Source of the DNA: an uncultured bacterium
Lineage (GTDB): Bacteria > Hydrogenedentota > Hydrogenedentia > Hydrogenedentales > JAEUWI01
Assembly (NCBI GenBank): GCA_963977445.1
Contig: CAXBPH010000001.1
Location: forward strand, 16,709 to 80,708
Reading direction: 5' to 3'
Length of the DNA stretch: 64,000 nucleotides
A model generated the notes under the pieces. The model saw only the letters and a list, made by a program, of their open reading frames with translations, was not told where the DNA came from and did not search any database. The number at the start of each line of letters is the position of its first letter. Position 1 is the stretch's first letter. The translations under genes were made by a program, and so were the position numbers. This document shows, one piece after another, positions 1,470 through 63,666 of this stretch.

Positions 1470-4274
1470 TCAAGCCACGTTTTTTTTTGCGAGAGCCGTC
1501 TCGATGACGTCGAAGAGTTGGGCCACGTTGAAGGGCTTGCGGAGCACTTCACGGGCTCCGCTACCGCTGGCGGTACCTATTTCCAGATCAGAGGTGGGCC
1601 CGAGCAACAAAACCACGGCAAGGCTTGGTTTGCGCTTTTGAATCTCGTCTACCAGAGCGGTGGGGGTATTGACGCCGCGGACGGCACCGTCAAGGAGGAC
1701 AAGGTCAACGGGATTCGCAATAACTTCGGCGAGGGCTTCGAGGCCGTCGGCAGCGGTGCGGATCGAGTAGCCGCGATTGCGCAAGGCCTCGGCGAGTACG
1801 TCGCCCAGCGCGGGGTCGTTATCCACCAGTAGGATTCGATGTTCGCTCGATGGGGCGGCGCTGGGTGCCTGCACAGGAGCGGGGGCACTGACAGGGGCAC
1901 GCTCGGGCGGACGGATCTCAAAGTCCTGCGAACGTAGCGAATCGGGTGCCGACTGCTCAGCCCGAAGCATACGTCGGGCCGTGTCCGCTTTGATGGCAGC
2001 GACCACTTCGGGCGCAATGCCGGATGCACCCTCTTCTTCTTTTACCCGGGGTGAAAAGCTCGCTGTCTCGTCGATGGAGGAGCCTTTTGAAATCGCCTCT
2101 GGCTCGGCAGCCCCGGAACGGTCCGAGGCAATGGGCAGGGTCACGGTACAGGTTGTGCCTGAACCTTCCTGGCTGTGGAGCGTAATCGTGCCACGGTGGG
2201 CTTCCACGATGCCATGACAAACGGCGAGTCCCATACCCGTGCCTTCGTTGCCACTCTGGGTGGTGAAAAAGGGCTCGAATACTTTATCCATAATATCGGC
2301 AGCAATACCCTGACCCGTATCGATTATCTGCACAAGCACCGCGGTGCGGTCCTGATTGGGCCGCACGCGAATCGTGAGCTTGTCCCCCTGTCGGGCCATG
2401 GCGTTGACTGCGTTTTTCAGCAGATTCTGAAAGACCTGATCCAACTGCACCCGGTCCAGGGGAATCTGAGGTAAATCCTGGGCGTAATCTTCGACCAGTT
2501 GAATGCCTTCATCGGAAAACTTCTGGCGCACCCGGTCTACCGAGGTTTTTACGAGATAGCTGATGCGACTGGGCAGGAGTTGGGGAGGATTGGGACGAGC
2601 AAACTGGAGCAGGTCACGCAAGATTCCGCAGGCACGATTACTGTGCTCCACGATAGCCTGCAAGGCCTTCTGGTCTTCCGGCTCCTGGGTGTTGGCGAGC
2701 AGCATCTGGGCCTTGCCCGATATAACGGCCAGAGGATTGTTTATTTCGTGGGCCGCACCGGCCGCCATTTTACCGACACTGATGAGGCGCTCGGTCCGTC
2801 GATCGTGACGGTGGCTGAGCTCCTGTTTCCACACGGCTTCCGCCAGGGATTCTGCTTCGGCATGAACACCGCGCACGGCCTTGCAGCGGGCCAGCGCCGC
2901 ACCGGCACTCTTCACGAAATGCATCAAGTCGTTCAAAAAACTGTCGGAAAGGGTCGGACCACCGGCACCGCTCTGGAAAATAAGCTGTCCCACGCTCCGA
3001 TTGCCATCGAGAAGGGGCAGGGCCACAAAGCCATGGCGACGGATTACGTGTTTGTGTTCTTCCGCACCATCGGGGGCCCCTAGCGTCGCAATAAGTTCAT
3101 CAAGAGAGGAAGAGGAGTCTGAGGCATCATCGCCACCGCGCGTCACAACACTTTCGGGCTCTTCTGACTGGCTGCGCCAACGCAATACAACGGGACTTTC
3201 CGTCGTGTCGTCCGTCAGATAGCAGAGTCCCATAGGAATGGAAAAGGCCTTCCGAAGCCCGTCGACAAAGAGCGTCAATTGGGCAGCGGGCACGAGACCG
3301 GGCTGCATGCGCTCATGCAAGGTGCTCAGGGCCTCGTAATAATTGCGTTCAAACCGCAGGCGTGCCGTTTCCACCCGGGTGGTACCCACGCCGACAGCCT
3401 CCTGGAGCCTGCGTTTCGGGGTGGCTTCTGGCTGCGAATCTTTCAGACCATCGCGCACCATCTCCAGCACATCAACCCGCTCCAGCCCCAGACGCAAGTA
3501 ACGTTGCTCATCCAATGAGGCAACCCGTTCCTGGGGTGGAGAATCCAAGGTCTCGCCATGGGCAAGTATGTTCGCGAGAGAGATGATTTCTATCAACTCT
3601 ACCGGGTAGGGCGTATTGTCCAGCGTGCCTGGCGGGTGGTGGTGTAACCAGATGGCGAAGATCACCGAAGACGGCAGGCCCCACGCTTCAGAAAGCCACT
3701 TTCCGGCCACGGTATGATCGGCACCGAGTTCACGGCGCTCTGCTTCGAGGGCAAACAATCCCTGCTGGCGAACCAGCTCCAGGGCCCGGTTGTAACCACC
3801 CGGTGCGATGCGATCCAGGGCGGGCTTGCCAATGTCGTGTAATAGCCCCGCCACATAGGCCAAAGGCTGGTAGCGGCTTCGTATTTTGCGGGCGATGGTG
3901 TCGGCGTAGTGACCCACCGTAAGTGAATGTAGCCAGAAGGCCTTCAATTCGAGACCATGGCTTCGTGGGACGTCAAAAAGGGCAGGCAATACGCGATCGA
4001 AGGTAAGTTGGGCAACCCGTGCGAGGCCCAACGCCATCAATTGCTCGTCCAGCGGCGCGTCTTCGGCACAATCACATTCCGCAGCGGCTACCGTCTGGAA
4101 TTGGTGCACCAACCCATCGTCAAATTCGGCGATAGACACGAGCTCATCCCAGTGCACCGTCCCCGAATCAAGCGCGAGGAGAATTTCCCGCGCAATATGG
4201 GGCAGCACCGGCATTTGCTGCAACGAGCTTATACGTTGTTTTATATCTATCTTGATCATGTTCTTTTGCGCCAC
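1470..4274 (-). CDS. hybrid sensor histidine kinase with N-terminal HDOD domain, HisKA/HATPase_c core and C-terminal REC receiver
   Basis: N-terminus MPVLPHIAREILLAL...LLHDIGKPALD is HDOD-like. A GAF/PAS-like middle region follows. H-box AAGAAHEINNPLAVISG. HATPase_c G-boxes (IIDTGQGIAADIMDKVFEPFFTT, GTGMGLAVCHGIVEAH). C-terminal receiver ILLVDNDPALGDVLAEALRNRGYSIRTAADGLEALAEV...DLVLLDG. Confidence 0.8.
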   Translation of the reverse strand: MAQKNMIKIDIKQRISSLQQMPVLPHIAREILLALDSGTVHWDELVSIAEFDDGLVHQFQTVAAAECDCAEDAPLDEQLMALGLARVAQLTFDRVLPALFDVPRSHGLELKAFWLHSLTVGHYADTIARKIRSRYQPLAYVAGLLHDIGKPALDRIAPGGYNRALELVRQQGLFALEAERRELGADHTVAGKWLSEAWGLPSSVIFAIWLHHHPPGTLDNTPYPVELIEIISLANILAHGETLDSPPQERVASLDEQRYLRLGLERVDVLEMVRDGLKDSQPEATPKRRLQEAVGVGTTRVETARLRFERNYYEALSTLHERMQPGLVPAAQLTLFVDGLRKAFSIPMGLCYLTDDTTESPVVLRWRSQSEEPESVVTRGGDDASDSSSSLDELIATLGAPDGAEEHKHVIRRHGFVALPLLDGNRSVGQLIFQSGAGGPTLSDSFLNDLMHFVKSAGAALARCKAVRGVHAEAESLAEAVWKQELSHRHDRRTERLISVGKMAAGAAHEINNPLAVISGKAQMLLANTQEPEDQKALQAIVEHSNRACGILRDLLQFARPNPPQLLPSRISYLVKTSVDRVRQKFSDEGIQLVEDYAQDLPQIPLDRVQLDQVFQNLLKNAVNAMARQGDKLTIRVRPNQDRTAVLVQIIDTGQGIAADIMDKVFEPFFTTQSGNEGTGMGLAVCHGIVEAHRGTITLHSQEGSGTTCTVTLPIASDRSGAAEPEAISKGSSIDETASFSPRVKEEEGASGIAPEVVAAIKADTARRMLRAEQSAPDSLRSQDFEIRPPERAPVSAPAPVQAPSAAPSSEHRILLVDNDPALGDVLAEALRNRGYSIRTAADGLEALAEVIANPVDLVLLDGAVRGVNTPTALVDEIQKRKPSLAVVLLLGPTSDLEIGTASGSGAREVLRKPFNVAQLFDVIETALAKKNVA

Positions 4275-5817: not shown

Positions 5818-6915
5818 TTATAACGCGATAGCCGCCACCAGGCCGGTCAACAGTTGTTCCACCAATCGCATACAGGGACTCAACAACAAACTGCACACAA
5901 ACCATGCAATCAAAAATCCCATACCACCTTCCATTCGAAGGGGAAAGCGGCTGGAAATCAACAGTATTTTCGCCATAAAGGAAACCATGAAGGCCATGGC
6001 AACCAAAATGCCCGCCGCAGGGCCGAAGGCGCCAAAATGTTCCGCACCCCAATTCACCATGGCGTTTATGGCGGCAAAAGTAACCCCAAGATAGGCGACA
6101 GAAATATAGTTTTGGCGGGAATCGTTTTCGTAGAGCAGCTCCATCAGCGCCAACGTGGCATAGAGTCCTATCCCTTGACCGAGGGCGCTCGCGACAAAAT
6201 TCATGGCCCAAAGGACCCAGTGCCAAACGGCAGGCAACGTCTGGGCCCGTTCCATATCTACGGCGAAGAGTTGTGCGATCCATTGATTCACGGGAAGTGC
6301 CGCAGCCACCAGGACGACCACGACACCAACGACTGCGAGTGTGATCAGGCCTTTTTTCTTTCGCCCACGCTCGGCATCTTCGTGGTCTCGGTTTACAGCG
6401 AGTTTTTTGGGGGGCTCGGGGCGATAGAAATCGCGGCGTTCCCCCACCGATGGCGGTGTATACCCCGGTGCCGCCTGGACCGCACACAGATGGCACAACA
6501 ATCCCTGGGGGCTGGCATTCTTGTCCCAATCCCCCCGAAAGGTCCGATGGCAGCGACTGCACTGCTCCAGCTCATCTTCCGCCGCCGCCTCACGAATCCC
6601 CCCGGTCCAATCGCGTGCGGCAACGGGAGCAGACGCAACTTCAGGAGGCCCCTCCGGCGTTGCGGAAGGCGATGGGCTCTCGAAGTCCCCAACCCCCGGA
6701 CTGAAATCAGATTCCATGGCACGGTCGTCGGCGAAGGCATCGGATGGAAGCTCCGGCACGAAGGCCTCCGCGAAGACAATCTTCTCTGCGGATACTTCGG
6801 CGGCAGGTAGAGGCCGTCCACAGGCGAGACACGAGCGCGCCTCGCCATAGGCGAATACTCCCAGGTCATTGCGTTGACCACATTCACATACGACCGATTG
6901 CCCCAAAACGTACAC
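5818..6915 (-). CDS. membrane protein with N-terminal double zinc-ribbon (hypothetical)
   Basis: N-terminal CECG...CLACG and CSRCH...CHLC cysteine pairs, an acidic/proline-rich linker, then ~6 C-terminal TM helices. The antisense ORF 5854..6810 was rejected. Confidence 0.45.
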   Translation of the reverse strand: MYVLGQSVVCECGQRNDLGVFAYGEARSCLACGRPLPAAEVSAEKIVFAEAFVPELPSDAFADDRAMESDFSPGVGDFESPSPSATPEGPPEVASAPVAARDWTGGIREAAAEDELEQCSRCHRTFRGDWDKNASPQGLLCHLCAVQAAPGYTPPSVGERRDFYRPEPPKKLAVNRDHEDAERGRKKKGLITLAVVGVVVVLVAAALPVNQWIAQLFAVDMERAQTLPAVWHWVLWAMNFVASALGQGIGLYATLALMELLYENDSRQNYISVAYLGVTFAAINAMVNWGAEHFGAFGPAAGILVAMAFMVSFMAKILLISSRFPLRMEGGMGFLIAWFVCSLLLSPCMRLVEQLLTGLVAAIAL

Positions 6916-39498: not shown

Positions 39499-42400
39499 GT
39501 GGCCAGAGAAACAAGGCAGGGAATTATCACAATGAAAAATCACCGCAATCGATTTGTGTTGGGCATGACGGTCAGTACGCTGCTTTGCGGACTCTGGCAA
39601 CCGCAACTTGACGCCCAGCAAGAAAGCGCCGAGACCCTGGCGGGCATGGAAACCGCTCCCGGACTCGAAGTGACGCTCTTCGCATCTGAGGACCAACTGG
39701 TCAATCCAACGGCCATAGACATCGGTCCAGACGGACGGGTCTGGGTGACGGAGGCAGCCAACTACCGCCTCTTCAAACATCCCGTTGTCCAGGAAGGTGG
39801 TGATCGTGTCCGCGTCCTTGAAGATACGGATGGAGACGGCCGTTGCGATAAAGCGACCACGTTCTACCAGGATCCTTCGCTCCAGGCACCGCTGGGCATC
39901 GCTATCCTCGGCGACCGGGTCTATGTGTGCCAAAGCCCCGACCTCTTCTATCTCGAAGACCTCGACAAAGACGGTAAGGCCGACAAGAAAACCATCATCC
40001 TCACCGGCTTCGGGGGCGTTGATCATGACCACGCCATACATGGCATCATGGCGGGCCCCGATGGTCTTATTTACATGACCGTAGGCGATGGCGGCCTTGA
40101 CGTGACCGATAAATCGGGCCACCGCATCACGGCTGGCAAGGGCGCTGAGAATCCCGAGTTTGATGCGGCCACCGTGTTACGCACCGATCCTGAGGGCAAT
40201 CATCTGGAGATCCTGGCCGAGGGCATGCGCAACCCCTATGAGCCCACCATAAACTCCTTTGGCACCATATTTGGTTCGGACAATGACGACGATGGCAACG
40301 AACAGGTCCAGATTAATGACGTCATGGAAGGCGGACATTATGGGTACTGGCCCCGGCGCCAGGGCGACCGTCGCCTTGATGCGATCCATTGGAACAAAGA
40401 CCGCGCCGGCGTAATGCCCAATATGATTCGCACGGGATTTGGCTCGCCCACCGGCATCCTGTTTTACGAAGGCTCCCTCCTTCCGACGCGCCTGCAGAAC
40501 ACCTTGATTCATGCAGACGCGGGTCCGGGCGTCATTCGCTCCTACCGCGCCGTGGCCAATGGCGCAGGCTACAGTGGCGAAACAGAAATTATCCTCTCCG
40601 CGCCAAAAGACAAATGGTTTCGTCCCAGCGACGTCTGCGTAGCGCCTGATGGTTCCGTGCTTGTCGCAGACTGGTACGACCCGGGCGTCGGCGGTCACAA
40701 CATGGGTGACACAACCCGTGGCCGAATCTACCGCCTGGCACCGCCTGCAACGCCCTATACGATTCCCCCGCTGGAGTTAACGACAGACGAAGGCATTACC
40801 AACGCCCTGGCCTCCCCCAACCTGGCCCGCCGCTACCTGGCCTATACCGTCCTCACCGGAGACCTTAAGGGTGCCGAAGTGCCCCTGCTCCATAAGATTT
40901 ATCAAAGCAATGATCCGGTCCTCCGCGCACGGGCCCTCTGGCTCCTCGGACAGGAAAAAAACCACGGCTTGGAAACCCTCCTGGAAGCGGCCAAAGATGA
41001 TGCCCCGGCCTTCCGCGTTGAAGCCGTTCGCCTGTTGGCCGCCCGGGGTTCGGATGCGCTCTTCATGGCCGCTGGGTTGGTCGACGACCCCAACCCCATG
41101 GTCCGCCGCCAGGTGCTGGTAGAACTGCGCAACCTGCCGGATTCCTCCAAGCGAGACGCATGGCTTATCGCCCTGGCCCTGCAATATGACGGCCAGGATC
41201 GATTCTATCGGGAGGCAGTGGGTATCGCCTTCACCGGCCGGGAATCCTGGGGCTTTGAACAACTTCATGAGAAATTGGGTGGCCGCTGGGATGAACGCCT
41301 CTCCGGCCTGGCCCTCCAACTTCATCCCCCAGAGGCTATGGTGATCGCCGAGACCGCACTCAGCAACGCCAACCTTGGTGATACCCCCCGAAAATTGGCC
41401 ATGGACGTGCTCGACGCCATCGGCACCGAGGAAAGCGGCAAGCTTCTCGTCCAACTCATCGAAGCACCCGGCACCGAAGCCACCCTTTTCGAGCACGCCC
41501 TGCACCACCTTTCCCGGAATGGCGGCCAGGACTGGAGCAGCGTTACCGGCGGCGACGTCCTGGACGACGCCCTCGCGACCGCCTTGGATGACCCGGGACG
41601 CAGCAAGGCGGTGTGGTCCTTCCTTGCCGACACCCAACGACAGAGCTTCGTACCGGTATTGATTGCCCGTGCAAACCAGGAAACACTCACACTGGACAGT
41701 CGATTGGCCTCCCTGAGCGGCATCCGAGCGATTGCGCCCAAAGTAGGCCCCAAGGATGCCGACGGCATGGTAAAGGAGCTCGCACCCCTGCTGCAGGATA
41801 AAAATGAATTGTTGCGGAACGCGGTTCTCCAGACGATCCAGGATTTCCGTGGCAGCGCCAGCCGTTCCCTTCTACTGGACCTCGTTTTGGACATAGAACA
41901 GGATCTGACCCTGCGCGCGGACCTCGCCAAACACCTGGCGGGCACCCAGTCTGGCGCCATTGCGCTGCTGGATGCGGTGGAACAGGAAACATTGCCGGCT
42001 GACCTGCTGCCCGTGGTTTCGGAACAGATTCACAACAGCCCCTTCGAAGATGCCCGCATGATGGCGGAACAACTGCTTCCCCGAGACACCACCGCCGATG
42101 GTGCGGCCCTGCCCCCCATGGAGGAACTGATAACCATGGCGGGCGACGCGGAACGGGGCAAGATGGTCTTCTTCAGCGAAGATTTTGCCCAATGCTTCCG
42201 CTGCCACAGAATCGGAGAGGAAGGCAAAGAAGTGGGTCCCAATCTCACGGTGATTGGCCAGAAATTCGGCCGGGAAGGCATTCTGGAATCCATCCTCTTT
42301 CCGAGTGCAGCCATTTCCCACGAATATGAGGTTTGGATAGTGGAAACCGAGTGGGACGGCTTCCTCAGCGGCTTCATTGTGAGTGAGAACGACAAAGAAG

Positions 42401-52350: not shown

Positions 52351-53017
52351 GGTTCCAGGGCAATTAGTTGGGATGATTTATTCGATATTTCAAGTGCAGG
52401 AGGCAAAAGGATGGCTCGATAGGTTCTTGCGAATCATGTCGTCACGCAACTTTTTGCAGATAAAACGACAAACCATGGACGTGCCGCGCGATCTGGCACT
52501 CCTGTCGAAGATGCGCCGCAGGTGGATTCGTGCGAAGGGGCTGCGGGACGTCGTTGGGGTCTATGTAATTGTGGGAAGTCTTCAATAGGTCATTGGGAAT
52601 AGAGCATTTTGCTTGGCCGAACTTTGCGTTGCTAATCCTTGAAAATACTCGTATTTCCCGTGGCTTCGCGCCTTGATTTCGACCAAGAATTCTCGTTCTC
52701 GCCTTCACGCGCCTTTTGCAACGGGCTGCTAGCATATTTCGCCGATCACATGAAAATCAGAGGGGCGAGGTGCGGTGTGTCCATTCCAAGCGCACGAACC
52801 CTCGTACCGCGGGATCGCGCGGCACCTTTGGCGCTTGAAATCTCGAATCAATCATCCCAGCTACGTACGCATGAACTTTTCTTATTGCCCAAACATGCGA
52901 CTGGACCGCAAAAAGACAACGCGCCACAACGCCCCCTCCCACGGTCTTCCGGACACAAAAAGAGCCAGGAACAACCTGTGTTGCACCTGGCTCTGAAGTA
53001 GCGTCTGATTGAGTAAC

Positions 53018-58820: not shown

Positions 58821-61800
58821 GTGAGAGAGACTGTTATGCATCCCATCCCATACATTTCCCTGCTGATCGGGGTCGTTTCCCTAGTTCAGGCGCCCGCCGT
58901 GTCCGCCACCGAGGTTGATTTCCAGCAGGACATTCTCCCCCTGATGGCAGACCGGTGCTTTGCCTGCCATGGTCCCGATGGCAATCAACGCAAGGGCGAC
59001 CTGCGGCTTGATGTGGAATCCGCTGCAAAAAAGGAAGTCATCGTATCGGGAGAACCCGAAAACAGCGAGCTCATTCGGCGCATTCTCACCACGGATCCCG
59101 ACGACCATATGCCCCCACCGGAATCGGAGAAGGAAAGTCTCACCCCGGAACAAATCGAGTTGTTTCGCGCATGGATACAACAAGGCGCGACCTGGGAAGG
59201 TCACTGGGCCTATACGACGCCCTCCCTCCCCGATACGCCCGCCGTCGTAACCCAACAGTGGGCTCGGACCCTTGTCGACCCCTTTATCCTGGCGCGTCTG
59301 GAGGAGAAGGGCCTGTCTCCTTCGCCCGAGGCGGACCGGGAAACCCTCATCCGACGTCTCACCCTGGATCTAACGGGGCTGCCACCCACCCTGGACGCCA
59401 TCGACCGCTTTGTCTTGGACAACAGCGACGATGCCTATGAGAACCTCGTTGACGGCCTGCTGAATACCCCTGCCTATGGGGAGCACATGGCCCGGATGTG
59501 GCTCGATGTGGCCCGCTATGCCGACACCAATGGCTACCAGAATGATTTCCACCGGGTCATGTGGCCCTGGCGCGACTGGGTCGTTGGTGCCTTCAACGAC
59601 AATATGCCCTATGACCAGTTCGTCGTTGAACAGCTTGCCGGTGACCTCCTCCCCAACGCAACAGAATCCCAGCGCATCGCCACGGGGTTCAACCGCAATA
59701 ACAAGAGCGTCACCGAGGGCGGCTCCATTGAAGAAGAATGGCTCGTGGAAAACCTCGTGGACCGGGTGGAGACCACGTCGCTGGCCTTTCTCGGTCTGAC
59801 CATGGGGTGTGCGCGCTGTCACGATCACAAGTATGACCCCATCACCCAGAAAGATTTCTATCAATTCTACGCGTTCTTCAATAGCACCGAGGACAATGGC
59901 TTTTATCAGGAAACCCGGGGCAATACGGGGCCACAGGTCTTCGTGCCCGATTTTAAACAGCAGCAGGAACTGACCCGGCTGGACCAGGCCATTAATCGGG
60001 CCCAGGCCGAATACAACGAGGCCCGCGCGGCCCAGGGTGGTGAGTTTGACGGCTGGCTGAACGCGCTCCGAGAGGTCAAACCCGCGGAGAACGCACCCCA
60101 TCCCGTCTACGAGGCGGCCCTGGCGGGAACGCTGCCCACCCAGGAAGCACCACCGGCCAACACGCCGGTCTGGAAAGCGGGCCTCCTCGGGCAAGCCCTC
60201 GCGCTGGACGGTACGGCAACCTCGACCATCGATTTGGGTCAGGGCGTCACCTTTGATCGGGAAAAGCCCTTTACCGCACTCCTGTGGGTCCGGCCCACGT
60301 CAGCGGGTGCCCTCTACAGCAAGATGGATGAAGCGCAGGACTTCCGTGGCGTGGATCTGCTCCTTTCCGGCAACGGCGCAATCGAGGCTCATGTCGTCAG
60401 CGCATGGGATTCGGATGCCTTCAAGATTCAGGCAGAGAACGCCGTCACCATGGGCGTATGGAATTTTGTAGGCCTCACCTATGACGGCTCCAGTAAAGCG
60501 TCCGGCATGAAAGTCTATGTCAATGGCATGGAAGTCCCCGTGAAGGTCTTGAACGACGCCCTGAGCGGCCCCATCGACACGGCCCAACCCCTCCGCGTGG
60601 GCCAACGCACGTCTAGCACCTATCTCAACGGGGAAGTCGCTGGCCTTCAGTTTTTTGACCAGGCCCTGCCGCTGGACGTGGTGACCCAATTCCAGGACGT
60701 CTCCCTGGCATCCGCCTTGACGACGGATATTGGCGAGGATCAGATGAAGGCCCTTCAGGGGTTTCATAATCTCCAAATCACCAAGCTCCTTCGTCCCCAG
60801 CAGGAAGCCCTCGACGCGACAAACAAGGCCCGCAATGAGTATGCGAAAAACATCCCCAGTGTCATGGTGATGGAAGAGCGGGAAACGCCCCGGCCGACTT
60901 ATCTCCTCAAGCGGGGTGCCTATGACGCGCCCGACACCAGTGAAGAACTCCATCCGAACACACCCGGCTTCCTGCCTGCCCTGGCCGACGGCGTCCCCCA
61001 CAATCGTCTGGGCCTGGCCCAATGGCTCATTTCACCGGAAAATCCACTCACAGCACGGGTCGCGATAAACCGATTCTGGCAAATGCTCTTTGGCCGTGGT
61101 CTCGTGAAGACTTCCGAAGATTTTGGCGTTCAGGGAAGCCCCCCGACCCACCCCAAGTTGCTCGATGCCCTGTCCCTTCACTTTGAGGAAACCGGTTGGG
61201 ACGTGAAAGGACTGTTGAAGGATCTGGTCATGAGCGCCACCTACCGTCAATCGAGTGCCCTGAATCAGACCTTGCTGGCCCAGGACCCGGACAACCAGTT
61301 TTATGCCCGGGCACCCCGTTATCGCCTCTCTGCAGAGATGATTCGGGACAACGCTCTGGCCGTCAGTGGCTTACTGGCGAAGGAACTCGGCGGACCACCG
61401 GCCATGCCCTATCAACCGGGGGGACTGTGGGAAGAACTCGCGGGCGGTGCCAGCCAAGGCCCCTATGTGCAGGGAACGGGTGATGATCTCTATCGCAGAA
61501 GCCTCTATACCCATCGCAAGCGAACCGTGCCCCACCCCACGTTGACGACCTTTGACGCCCCGAGCTTTGAGTATTGCCTCGCACGCCGGGGACGCACCAA
61601 CACCCCCTTGCAGGCGCTGGCGCTCTTGAATGACACCACCTATGTGGAAGCAGCCCGCCATCTGGCCCAGCGGATGGTGACCGAAGTAGACGGCGACGCC
61701 CGTGCCCGTCTGGCCTATGGCTTTCGCCTGGCAACGGGACGTAACCCCACGGAATCGGAATTGAATTCCCTGCAACTCGGCTATGACCGCTATGAAGAGA

Positions 61801-61949
61801 AATATGCCAGCGACCCAGAGGCCAGCCAGGCCTTGGTGAGCAATGGCGAATCTCCCGTTCCCGGGGACATCCCCGCAGCGACCCTGGCGGCCTATACACC
61901 CGTCGCAGGCGTTCTGCTCAACCTCGACGAAACCTTGACGCGGGAATAG
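58821..61949 (+). CDS. Planctomycete cytochrome-c domain protein (PSCyt1 + PSCyt2/DUF1549 + PSD1/DUF1553)
   Basis: Signal peptide. CFACHG heme-binding motif near the N-terminus. 1042 aa with the DUF1549...DUF1553 layout, followed by a DUF1501 gene as is typical. Confidence 0.8.
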   Translation: MRETVMHPIPYISLLIGVVSLVQAPAVSATEVDFQQDILPLMADRCFACHGPDGNQRKGDLRLDVESAAKKEVIVSGEPENSELIRRILTTDPDDHMPPPESEKESLTPEQIELFRAWIQQGATWEGHWAYTTPSLPDTPAVVTQQWARTLVDPFILARLEEKGLSPSPEADRETLIRRLTLDLTGLPPTLDAIDRFVLDNSDDAYENLVDGLLNTPAYGEHMARMWLDVARYADTNGYQNDFHRVMWPWRDWVVGAFNDNMPYDQFVVEQLAGDLLPNATESQRIATGFNRNNKSVTEGGSIEEEWLVENLVDRVETTSLAFLGLTMGCARCHDHKYDPITQKDFYQFYAFFNSTEDNGFYQETRGNTGPQVFVPDFKQQQELTRLDQAINRAQAEYNEARAAQGGEFDGWLNALREVKPAENAPHPVYEAALAGTLPTQEAPPANTPVWKAGLLGQALALDGTATSTIDLGQGVTFDREKPFTALLWVRPTSAGALYSKMDEAQDFRGVDLLLSGNGAIEAHVVSAWDSDAFKIQAENAVTMGVWNFVGLTYDGSSKASGMKVYVNGMEVPVKVLNDALSGPIDTAQPLRVGQRTSSTYLNGEVAGLQFFDQALPLDVVTQFQDVSLASALTTDIGEDQMKALQGFHNLQITKLLRPQQEALDATNKARNEYAKNIPSVMVMEERETPRPTYLLKRGAYDAPDTSEELHPNTPGFLPALADGVPHNRLGLAQWLISPENPLTARVAINRFWQMLFGRGLVKTSEDFGVQGSPPTHPKLLDALSLHFEETGWDVKGLLKDLVMSATYRQSSALNQTLLAQDPDNQFYARAPRYRLSAEMIRDNALAVSGLLAKELGGPPAMPYQPGGLWEELAGGASQGPYVQGTGDDLYRRSLYTHRKRTVPHPTLTTFDAPSFEYCLARRGRTNTPLQALALLNDTTYVEAARHLAQRMVTEVDGDARARLAYGFRLATGRNPTESELNSLQLGYDRYEEKYASDPEASQALVSNGESPVPGDIPAATLAAYTPVAGVLLNLDETLTRE

Positions 61950-62016
61950 AAAACGGTGACGTATGAATTACAGAATCCTTTCACGGAAATTCGAAGCCGG
62001 TACAACGGGATTAAAC

Positions 62017-62121
62017 GGGTGCCACCCTTACAGACACGAGGTACGAGTGGCTTTAAGGGTGTATCCCAACCCAACACCCTTAAACTCCCCCGCTGCGCTC
62101 CTCCGTGTAAGGGTGGCACCC
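62017..62121. repeat. nested perfect inverted repeat (16-bp outer stem, 11-bp inner stem) in PSCyt-DUF1501 intergenic region
   Basis: Outer arms GGGTGCCACCCTTACA (62017-62032) and TGTAAGGGTGGCACCC (62106-62121). Inner hairpin TTTAAGGGTGT (62052-62062) / ACACCCTTAAA (62074-62084) with an 11-nt loop. No U-tract. Confidence 0.6.
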
Positions 62122-62217
62122 ACAATACTTCGTGCTATGTATCGCCGTAACGTTGCTATTGACCCGACAACTCCGTTTGAGACGAAACCTCAATAAAATA
62201 ACTACCGGAACTACACT

Positions 62218-63666
62218 ATGGACGCGCTAAAATTTGCCCAACATATTAACCGCCGCGACTTCCTCCAACGTGCCGGATGCAGCCTCGGTGCCGCCGCGCT
62301 CGGCCTCCTCGGCGCCGGCACCGCAACAGCATCGACGGAAGAAGATATTCGTAAAGTAGCCAACCACTTCGCTCCCCGGGCCAAGCGGGTTATTTACCTC
62401 TTTCAGTCCGGCGCACCCACCCAACTCGAAACCTTCGACTATAAGCCGGGACTGAAAGACCTTGATACCACCGAGCTGCCCGACAGCATCCGCATGGGAC
62501 AACGGCTAACCGGCATGACCTCGGGCCAGGCGAATTTTCCCGTGACGGCGTCCCGTTTCGGCTTTTCGCAATATGGCCAAAGCGGCATGTGGCTCAGCGA
62601 ATTACTTCCCCATACCGCGGGCATCGCCGACGACATCTGCGTCATCCGCTCCATGCACACCGAAGCCATTAACCATGACCCGGCCATCACCTTCTGCCAG
62701 ACGGGCTCCCAACTTGCGGGCAAACCCAGCATGGGCGCCTGGGTGGCCTATGGCCTCGGCAGCAGCAACGAAAACCTACCTACCTTCACCGTGCTGATAT
62801 CCCGGGGCACGGGACGCCTCGCCACCCAGCCCCTTTATGACCGTCTCTGGGGCAGCGGTGCCCTCCCCGGACGTTACCAGGGCATAAAACTTCGTGCCGG
62901 TGAAGAACCCGTGCTCTACCTGGCCAACCCGGCAGGATGCGACACCAACATTCGCCGCCAGATGCTTGACCAGCTCAACGACCTCAACGAACAGAAGTAC
63001 AACGCGGTGCAGGACCCCGAAATTCGCACCCGTATCGAACAATACGAGTTGGCCTTCCGCATGCAGTCCGCCGTGCCCGATCTCACCGACATCAGCGACG
63101 AACCGGAACACATCCTGGAAATGTATGGCCCCGACGTGCGCAAACCGGGCACCTACGCCCGCAACTGCCTCCTCGCCCGCCGCATGGCCGAGCGGGACGT
63201 CCGCTTCGTACAGCTTTATCACATGGGCTGGGATCACCACGACAACCTGCCCGACCACCTCACCAAGCAATGCCGCGACACGGATCAACCTTCGGCGGCG
63301 CTGGTGGCCGACTTGAAACAACGCGGCATGCTCGACGACACCCTCGTCATCTGGGGCGGCGAATTTGGCCGCACCGTCTACAGCCAGGGAAAAGTCACCG
63401 ACACCACCTATGGCCGGGATCACCACCCCCGCTGCTTCTCCCTCTGGATGGCCGGCGGCGGCATCAAGCCCGGCATCGTCCACGGCGAGACCGACGATTT
63501 CAGCTACAACATCGTGAAGGACCCGGTCCACGTAAATGACTTGCACGCCACCATCCTCGATTGCCTCGGCCTCGACCACGAACGCCTCTCCGTCCCCTTC
63601 CAGGGTCTGGACGTCCGCCTCTCCGGCGTGGAGGAACACCACCCGGTGAAAGCCATATTGGCGTAG
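62218..63666 (+). CDS. DUF1501 (sulfatase-like) protein with twin-arginine signal
   Basis: Tat motif [23 protein letters not shown]. 482 aa. The DUF1501 family is canonically paired with DUF1549/DUF1553 proteins. Confidence 0.8.

Follow-up and report, generated by a model that had tools for sequence, protein, structure and literature searches.

The 105-nt element at positions 62017–62121 of a 64-kb window of DNA from an uncultured bacterium is very probably a REPIN (a REP doublet forming a hairpin): two inverted, imperfectly palindromic repetitive extragenic palindrome (REP) units of ~47 nt each, from a family that is dispersed in Hydrogenedentota and has a single-domain HUH-Y1 REP-associated tyrosine transposase (RAYT) as its partner enzyme. 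By “window” we mean the whole 64,000-nt stretch that was analyzed, which is part of a 95.5-kb TARA Oceans scaffold whose closest relatives are Hydrogenedentota/Hydrogenedentiales metagenome-assembled genomes (MAGs). The assignment to a REPIN-RAYT system follows from a combination of features: inverted doublets, variable spacers, extragenic abundance, several subfamilies per genome, and a RAYT gene flanked by its own repeats. The family is also non-canonical, with long units that lack a GT[AG]G tag. Here, we describe the element, the family, and the enzyme, and weigh other explanations. Compared loci are given L numbers, and proteins are given P numbers.

The element first appeared as a pair of nested inverted repeats in a sequence-only reading of the window, and a repeat search found the stems exactly as described there. 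The outer arms are 16 nt long (62017–62032 and 62106–62121, spacing 73 nt) and the inner arms are 11 nt long (62052–62062 and 62074–62084, spacing 11 nt); both pairs are 100% complementary. The core reported as common to the two stems is indeed found in all four arms (CACCCTTA / TAAGGGTG). This core 8-mer occurs seven times in the window versus 1.3 expected, with four occurrences inside the element and the other three in coding sequence. Also set aside as chance were the extra TAAGGGTG and 16-mer-like hits at 40866, 49232, and 49401, all of which fall within coding sequence. The statement that the structure is far beyond chance also holds: as DNA, the 105-nt element folds at −31.8 kcal/mol on the plus strand (z = −7.6) and −32.8 kcal/mol on the minus strand (z = −6.8), with none of 200 shuffled sequences folding as well; for the whole intergenic region folded as RNA, z = −5.2. 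Missed at that stage was a second way of pairing, in which arms 1 and 2, and arms 3 and 4, form two adjacent hairpins with one mismatch each. This arrangement points to two inverted copies of one imperfect palindrome. The nested stems are perfect because unit 2 is an inverted copy of unit 1, mismatches included.

The sequence-only reading had listed a REP-like, genome-wide repeat among several candidates, and it is this candidate that was borne out. A blastn comparison of the element with orthologous loci returned related copies at unrelated positions: a complete 138-nt copy at L006:17785–17922, with a T-to-A change in both terminal arms, and a half copy in each of L002 and L003. Common to three copies is GGGTGCCACCC-N7-GAGGAGCG(A/C)AGCGGGGGA, which in the window lies on the minus strand. 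A pattern scan with GGGTGCCACCC-N7-GAGGAGCG across one genome per GTDB species yielded at least 116 matching stretches, all but seven of them in five Hydrogenedentota MAGs and the 7.9-Mb metagenome-assembled chromosome OW818658. The remaining seven, from Nitrospira sp. NFB02 (AP038806; L062, L074, L079, L100, L109, L124, and L125), were rejected as an unrelated multicopy sequence with a chance match to the pattern; the four that were inspected have identical flanks and none of the family's architecture, and were taken for an unrelated insertion sequence (IS) or gene family. In total, there are at least 124 unique unit instances. Counts per genome, all of which are lower bounds, are 53 in JAJRPE01, 20 in JAXMOL01, 18 in JAUIMA01, 17 in JBIJDL01, nine in OW818658, and four in JBHEKR01. 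The window copy matches the family unit profile with E = 2e-16 (nhmmer), and full-length homologues of 101–116 nt are found in L011, L098, L126, L044, and L050.

The positions of the copies are extragenic. All 35 complete copies that could be classified by position lie between long open reading frames (ORFs), and 17 further copies overlap ORFs of ≥120 aa that were judged spurious, some of them being frames through the GC-rich repeat itself. The genes around the copies are arranged in tandem in 19 cases, convergently in eight, and divergently in eight; in tandem contexts, eight copies are in sense and 11 in antisense orientation. Thus, the family is real, abundant, extragenic, and without orientation preference. 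The repeats also coincide with the ends of assembled sequence. Contigs or 8-kb blocks end in or next to a unit in L015, L022, L024, L025, L031, L032, L046, L054, L077, L080, L096, and L102. That many MAG contigs end inside repeats suggests that the family breaks short-read assemblies in Hydrogenedentota and is one cause of assembly fragmentation in the phylum.

Elements of the family share a fixed order of parts. With the conserved unit first, they comprise a GGGTGC tail, unit 1, a variable center, unit 2, and a GCACCC tail. Each ~47-nt unit has a 6-nt tail, an 11-bp stem, and a loop of 17–20 nt. Unit 1 consists of the stem CACCC+N6, the loop GGAGGAGCG(A/C)AGCGGGGGA(G/A), and the return stem N6+GGGTG; unit 2 consists of CACCC+N6, a second loop, and N6+GGGTG. 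The complete element in the window, identified from its 16-nt terminal inverted repeat, its homologues, and its profile match, lies on the minus strand in this reference orientation. Its unit 1 (62075–62121, minus strand) has the GGGTGC tail, a stem of CACCCTTACAC / GTTTAAGGGTG with one mismatch, and a 19–20-nt loop, and is defined by its match to GGGTGCCACCC-N7-GAGGAGCG and by stem covariation. The loop itself (62085–62104, minus strand) reads GGAGGAGCGCAGCGGGGGAG, or CTCCCCCGCTGCGCTCCTCC on the plus strand, and includes GCG(A/C)AGC. A loop census shows that it is near-invariant: the unit 1 loop is GGAGGAGCGAAGCGGGGGA in 56 of 115 copies, and the remainder differ at one to three positions or by one extra base. 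Unit 2 (62017–62061, plus strand) has the GGGTGC tail, a stem of CACCCTTACAG / CTTTAAGGGTG, again with one mismatch, and the loop ACACGAGGTACGAGTGG, of a type found in other loci. The central spacer (62063–62073) is the 11-nt loop of the inner hairpin and, by comparison among doublets, the family's variable center.

A copy-specific 16-nt terminal inverted repeat is found ≤450 nt away for 62 of the 124 instances. Elements range from 101 to 439 nt, with 185–200 nt being the commonest lengths, and the window copy belongs to a short class of 101–116 nt. In most instances without a paired end, the contig or block stops before the element is complete or the far end is degenerate; ~20 of the 124 look like true singlets. 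In 57 doublets, the center, taken as the distance between the 11-nt unit stems, spans 9–345 nt; on this scale, it is 13 nt in the window. In L039, L128, L129, and L210, the center holds a RAYT gene. The window's second-loop type (GCCACTCGTACCTCGTGTC, minus strand) is common to eight other copies (L011, L028, L044, L051, L086, L097, L098, and L126) and is also present in the units that flank the RAYT P0134 (L211–L213). Among the other second loops are small hairpins, of which GCCGG-GAA-CCGGC and GCGGC-GNA-GCCGC are examples, and loops that read as loop 1 in reverse complement. The N6 box occurs as the subtypes TCACGC, TCAAGC, TCAAAC, TTACAC, TTACGC, and GTACxC, which change together across all four arms.

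The stems covary. Two-sided changes occur at three places in the unit 1 stem: C:G (72 copies) or T:A (42) at position 7, G:C (65) or A:T (47) at position 10, and C:G (102) or G:C (nine) at position 11. Positions 6 and 9 are mismatched in most copies. We compared the two possible folds in an alignment of six short REPINs, with slid-partner controls and 500 shuffles. For the nested fold, 92% of positions are paired and three pairs are changed on both sides. The fold with two adjacent hairpins is 85% paired, has six pairs changed on both sides, and leaves one position in each unit that never pairs. Neither fold is matched by any slid-partner control; against the shuffles, the nested fold comes out clearly ahead on three of five measures and the adjacent fold on four of five. 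For the per-unit fold, ≤2 of 500 shuffles reach the observed value on four of five measures, the exception being further pair types (370 of 500).

The partner enzyme was not evident from the neighborhoods of the repeats. Across ~870 kb of loci, the recurrent neighbor proteins are from ordinary paralogue families alone (sulfatase-like, Gfo/Idh/MocA-like, ArsC-like, and ATP synthase subunit, assigned by reading the sequences rather than by a Pfam scan). The RAYT was revealed solely by a six-frame scan for an HUH...Y motif, which identified a 186-aa ORF on the minus strand of L039 (2421–2978). At this locus, unit 1 lies at 2343–2391 and unit 2 at 3047–3095, such that the gene fills the variable center of a doublet. 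The ORF matches Pfam Y1_Tnp and scores 88.5 bits against the NCBIfam “REP-associated tyrosine transposase” equivalog (NF047646); the four proteins scored reach 87.5–88.5 bits against a cutoff of 80. Against the IS200 equivalog model, the RAYT scores 28 bits, under the cutoff of 55. A profile of 26 homologues has as its best PDB match 4ER8, E. coli TnpA-REP (E = 1.3e-10), and the HUH residues H66 and H68, together with Y144, are invariant in the 26-homologue alignment.

The same association recurs across six lineages. RAYT homologues from the other family-bearing lineages are 62–91% identical, and family units lie beside the gene in all of them. In L128 (OW818658) and L129 (JAXMOL01), the gene is within a doublet, and both loci have the same hisD-hisC synteny upstream; this synteny would fit vertical inheritance of the RAYT. 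In L210, from the JAEUWI01 bin of L006, one unit is upstream of the gene and three tandem units are downstream. In L215, from the copy-richest MAG (JAJRPE01), the gene lies between two complete 195-nt doublets. The units that flank P0134 in L211–L213 are of the window's own subtype (e.g., GGGCCCCACCCTTACAGACGTGAGGTACAAGCGGCTTTACGGGTG). A more distant homologue, in L214, is 59% identical and has another kind of hairpin at its flanks, one in which just the GGGTGCCAC terminus is retained. A metagenome scan with the single RAYT protein gave no matches; with the RAYT alignment, it gave 80 loci whose RAYTs are ≤53% identical, none with a family unit. On these comparisons, the repeat type follows the enzyme clade. 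Two other Y1_Tnp ORFs (L118 2137–2904 and L019 66–452) were considered as partners and rejected, since they belong to other elements with different flanking repeats; the L118 ORF has unrelated long flanking repeats of its own. Several separate Y1 systems thus seem to be present in Hydrogenedentota genomes.

Much of this resembles the REPIN-RAYT systems of Pseudomonas and Enterobacteria, for which inverted doublets, extragenic abundance, and a RAYT flanked by its own repeats have been described (Bertels & Rainey; PMC3116915, PMC3337134, PMC5581495; also PMC6006769). In both cases, two inverted imperfect palindromes with a variable spacer form a long hairpin; the elements are extragenic and abundant, with several subfamilies per genome and some singlets; and the RAYT gene is flanked by the same repeats. 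Vertical inheritance of the RAYT loci, suggested here by the L128/L129 synteny, may be a further point in common. There are also differences. The family's loop is large (19–20 nt) and near-invariant, the two units of a doublet have different loops, the RAYT lies inside the doublet in four lineages, and the host phylum is Hydrogenedentota. The papers cited here place REPIN-RAYT systems mainly in Proteobacteria, and GTAG repeats also in Cyanobacteria, Chloroflexi, and the Planctomycetes-Verrucomicrobia-Chlamydiae (PVC) group. In the literature, we found no description of REPs of this kind in Hydrogenedentota.

Several observations weigh against the assignment, or against parts of it. First, the units depart from the canonical form. 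They are ~47 nt long, as opposed to roughly 20–40 nt in Pseudomonas and Enterobacteria, and have a loop of 17–20 nt in place of a small one. Canonical REPs of the GTAG superfamily have an unpaired 5′ GT[AG]G at the foot of the hairpin (PMC3733652, PMC6006769); this tag is absent here, since all units begin GGGTGC-CACCC, and GTGG occurs only across the junction of stem and tail, on the other strand. Second, no cognate RAYT of the family was found in the visible sequence of the source genome, i.e., 67 kb of the source contig and one other scaffold, nor was a closer TARA-derived relative of P0134 present among the best 120 of 1,322 matches. The only RAYT found in the source TARA assembly, P0158 on scaffold_648, is flanked by a different REP family (GTGCCGCGCGATCCGG...). 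Third, a profile search found a single copy of the family in the 64-kb window, which bears on its abundance in the source genome. Fourth, orthologous sites in JAXMOL01 and JAUIMA01 share some copies, so these insertions predate the split of the two, and many copies are old rather than recently mobile. Lastly, the exact ends of the element are less certain than its core. About 25 nt outside the GGGTGC termini are weakly conserved on both flanks, with an A-rich consensus on the inward strand. By eye in the copy listing, though not tabulated, these outer flanks appear to vary with the core subtype, and the true ends may therefore lie further out. Comparison between genomes provided no clean pair of filled and empty sites that would fix the ends or demonstrate mobility: sites either share an element or differ in complex ways (L071 vs L105, L011 vs L023).

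In the L071/L105 pair, the flanks are ~95% identical; L071 (1000–1321) has a 322-nt composite and L105 (735–878) a 144-nt element, with the same right junction and different loops in the terminal unit. This difference suggests that one element replaced or converted another, or that a single site was used more than once. A related observation concerns the flanks of L214 (1896–2459), where a sister REP type, GGGTGCCACGGGTAGGCC...TTACCCGTG, has only the GGGTGCCAC terminus in common with the family and adjoins the 59%-identical RAYT P0138. A copy of this sister type is nested in a 439-nt REPIN (L025, ~6500–6660), which suggests that elements insert into one another.

The different family that flanks P0158 is also represented in the window, as an inverted pair at ~52352–52876. 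Its 46-nt outer arms are 78% complementary and enclose a perfect 13-nt inverted repeat (GTGCCGCGCGATC / GATCGCGCGGCAC), and the repeat is ~80% identical over 70–91 nt to the P0158-flanking repeats, of which at least six copies are in tandem beside the gene (L127). The presence of P0158-type repeats on both scaffolds suggests one organism with at least two REP families. Within this second repeat element, the window at 52462 and the ENA record of the same scaffold (L001, position 245) differ by one base (TAAAACG vs TATAACG), which may be a version or consensus difference.

How the doublets spread is proposed by analogy with E. coli TnpA-REP and IS200/IS605, as mobilization in the form of single-stranded DNA. 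In this scheme, the RAYT would recognize folded unit hairpins on single-stranded DNA (e.g., at a replication fork), would cleave and rejoin at the conserved GGGTGC foot, and would thereby disseminate the doublet. Among solved structures, E. coli TnpA-REP matches the partner protein best; it comes from a system in which bacterial interspersed mosaic elements (BIMEs) also pair two REP types, Y and Z, in inverted orientation, and its proposed recognition target is a folded single-stranded hairpin together with a short foot sequence (REPtron; 4ER8; PMC3479197, PMC6006769). The two systems differ in that identity between TnpA-REP and the putative Hydrogenedentota transposase is low, with only two matching stretches and a profile E of 1e-10, and in that the family's foot, GGGTGC, is complementary to the first stem bases rather than an unpaired GTAG.

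The loops invite a further proposal. DNA of the form d(GCGNAGC) makes unusually stable triloop hairpins, and GCG(A/C)AGC in the unit 1 loop is a possible GNA-triloop mini-hairpin. Along with the G-N-A-closed mini-stems in the loops, it would fit a single-stranded DNA substrate. The loop may be a recognition determinant because it is fixed while the stems covary and the loop of the partner unit changes type. We therefore raise, as a speculative and rather unlikely idea, that the near-invariant, purine-rich loop with its GCG-N-AGC mini-hairpin is what this RAYT clade recognizes, a loop-reading mode that would be unlike the GTAG-foot recognition of E. coli TnpA-REP, or else that it is a motif co-opted by the host. 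The latter would draw on the transcribed loop, which reads as a Shine-Dalgarno (SD)-like GGAGGAG on one strand and an anti-SD-like CUCCUCC on the other.

Two other groups of Y1-associated elements are useful comparisons. Terminal inverted repeats (TIRs) associated with tyrosine transposases (TIRYT/TIRtron), and the atypical TnpA-Y1 classes 2.6 and 3, have been described by Di Nocera et al. (PMC3733652) and Quentin et al. (PMC6006769); the TIR families are moderately abundant and occur in, among others, Planctomycetes and Acidobacteria. As here, genes for tyrosine transposases are bordered by longer, non-GTAG inverted repeats, some of which are self-complementary (“double palindromic”). By contrast, the GGGGWSAS motif is absent from the Hydrogenedentota family, the protein passes the NCBI RAYT equivalog model and could not be assigned to those classes, and abundance appears to be higher, since a single incomplete MAG has at least 53 copies. 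The IS200/IS605 elements and their palindrome-associated derivatives are similar in that they have a Y1 HUH enzyme, their hairpins are subterminal and take the place of simple inverted repeats, and they make no target-site duplication. They differ in that each end of the elements described here is an inverted copy of the other, the repeats multiply without the enzyme gene, and the protein falls below the IS200 cutoff.

A classical miniature inverted-repeat transposable element (MITE), i.e., a deletion derivative of a DDE-transposase IS that moves by cut-and-paste via the 16-bp terminal inverted repeats, would share many properties with these elements, which are small and intergenic, end in perfect terminal inverted repeats, vary in their interior, and exist in many copies. 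We give this explanation hardly any chance. No target-site duplication of 2–9 nt was found in 60 complete copies, and identical flanks of any one length in this range occur in ≤3 of the 60, which is the chance level. There is no recurrent DDE transposase beside the copies in the ~870 kb of loci; instead, the only protein between or beside the ends, in six lineages, is the Y1 HUH enzyme. Finally, DDE insertion sequences are expected to have short inverted repeats, whereas conservation here reaches ~47 nt inward and includes the loop.

It is also conceivable, though very unlikely in our view, that the repeats are not mobile and are instead sites maintained by the host (e.g., an array to which a nucleoid protein, gyrase, or some other factor binds), with the Y1 protein being a domesticated nuclease. 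RAYT domestication is debated in the literature (PMC5581495). The four core-motif copies in alternating orientation, a near-invariant 19–20-nt loop across genera whose RAYTs are just 62–91% identical, the vertical inheritance that fits the syntenic L128/L129 loci, and the copies common to orthologous sites between species would all be compatible with such a role. There is, however, no sign of any binding protein; the ends are retained but the interiors decay freely; genomes differ strongly in copy number; and presence or absence varies at orthologous loci. Moreover, much of the host-maintenance view overlaps with the REPIN-RAYT model, for which it is no substitute. As for the palindromic protein-binding site that the sequence-only reading listed as a candidate, a host protein may bind the palindrome, but nothing points to a locus-specific operator.

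In the window, the REPIN sits in the 268-nt intergenic region between two genes on the plus strand, whose Pfam matches agree with the sequence-only reading. Upstream is a PSCyt/DUF1553 gene (58821–61949; PSCyt1, PSCyt2, Laminin_G_3, and PSD1 domains), and downstream is a DUF1501 gene (62218–63666; E = 1.9e-152); both are context and lie outside the element. The hairpin is 68 nt past the PSCyt/DUF1553 stop and 97 nt ahead of the DUF1501 start, and the conserved-loop unit is antisense to the operon. We found no intrinsic terminator (a GC-rich stem with a T-tract) on either strand from 61500 to 62700, in agreement with the earlier statement that the structure is not a simple one, and a scan around the element gave no sigma-70-like promoter. 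The flanks, being A-rich and T-rich, prompted the idea of a bidirectional terminator. It was rejected, since pairing at the flank positions occurs in only 17–48% of copies and the tracts are 9–14 nt from the stem. Small ORFs over the element (61963–62196, 61956–62150, and 61892–62125) have no Pfam match, and a coding role was rejected because the changes that separate subfamilies are not synonymous and because the sequence is a palindrome.

The location between these genes makes a locus-specific role attractive, and an attenuator, processing site, or other structured cis-regulatory RNA that couples the two genes was the candidate named first in the sequence-only reading. Indeed, the element lies inside a probable operon and would form a very stable RNA fold, and REP hairpins in E. 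coli are known to influence mRNA decay and translation. We compared the orthologous gene pair in four lineages (L002–L005, L006, L007, and L010), in which the DUF1501 proteins are 88–91% identical. The intergenic regions are 399 nt (L002–L005), 132 nt (L006), 98 nt (L007), and 94 nt (L010) long and cannot be aligned, and the hairpin is absent from all of them, as confirmed by profile search. Hence, no conserved structure couples the two genes, and the window copy reflects either an insertion here or losses elsewhere. The same sequence also separates unrelated genes that are arranged in tandem, convergently, or divergently, and it does so in both orientations; the conserved-loop unit of the window copy is antisense to the operon; and Rfam covariance models at permissive thresholds gave sub-threshold chance matches alone, both for the window element and for one long copy. 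On this evidence, a structured RNA (attenuator, processing site, or stabilizer) that evolved at this locus to couple expression of the two genes has a very slim chance of being the explanation. The sequence-only reading had also held that, with neither conservation of the structure in orthologous regions nor additional copies, only a sporadic palindrome would be left; structural conservation is absent, but additional copies are abundant.

The orthologous regions have two features of their own. In L002 (8251–8613), and also in L003–L005, the intergenic region has a called 120-aa ORF that lacks a Pfam match, is unrelated, and has no counterpart in the window; by eye, it resembles a small membrane protein. 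In L010 (8799–8832; JAJRPE01), a degenerate unit, GGGTGCCACCTGCACGCGCCGGAGTTCGTGGGTG, with the conserved loop deleted, lies just 3′ of the DUF1501 stop, and there is nothing upstream.

At the level of the locus, the meaning of these results is that a tempting false lead is removed: the hairpin is not a conserved regulator of the PSCyt/DUF1553-DUF1501 pair. If the genes are co-transcribed, the read-through mRNA would carry a very stable hairpin between them, which, to judge from REPs in E. coli, could shield the upstream message or dampen downstream expression. Because the hairpin is not conserved at orthologous loci, any such effect is probably an incidental side effect and not the reason for the element's presence.

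The family is of greater interest than the locus, on account of its conserved loop and matched enzyme clades. To our knowledge, the phylum Hydrogenedentota is known only from metagenome-assembled genomes. What is documented here is very probably a REPIN-RAYT system in this phylum, with unusually long units, no GTAG tag, and a strongly conserved loop. Its many members, non-canonical form, co-varying subtypes, and matched RAYT clades would make the family useful for studying how RAYTs recognize their substrates.

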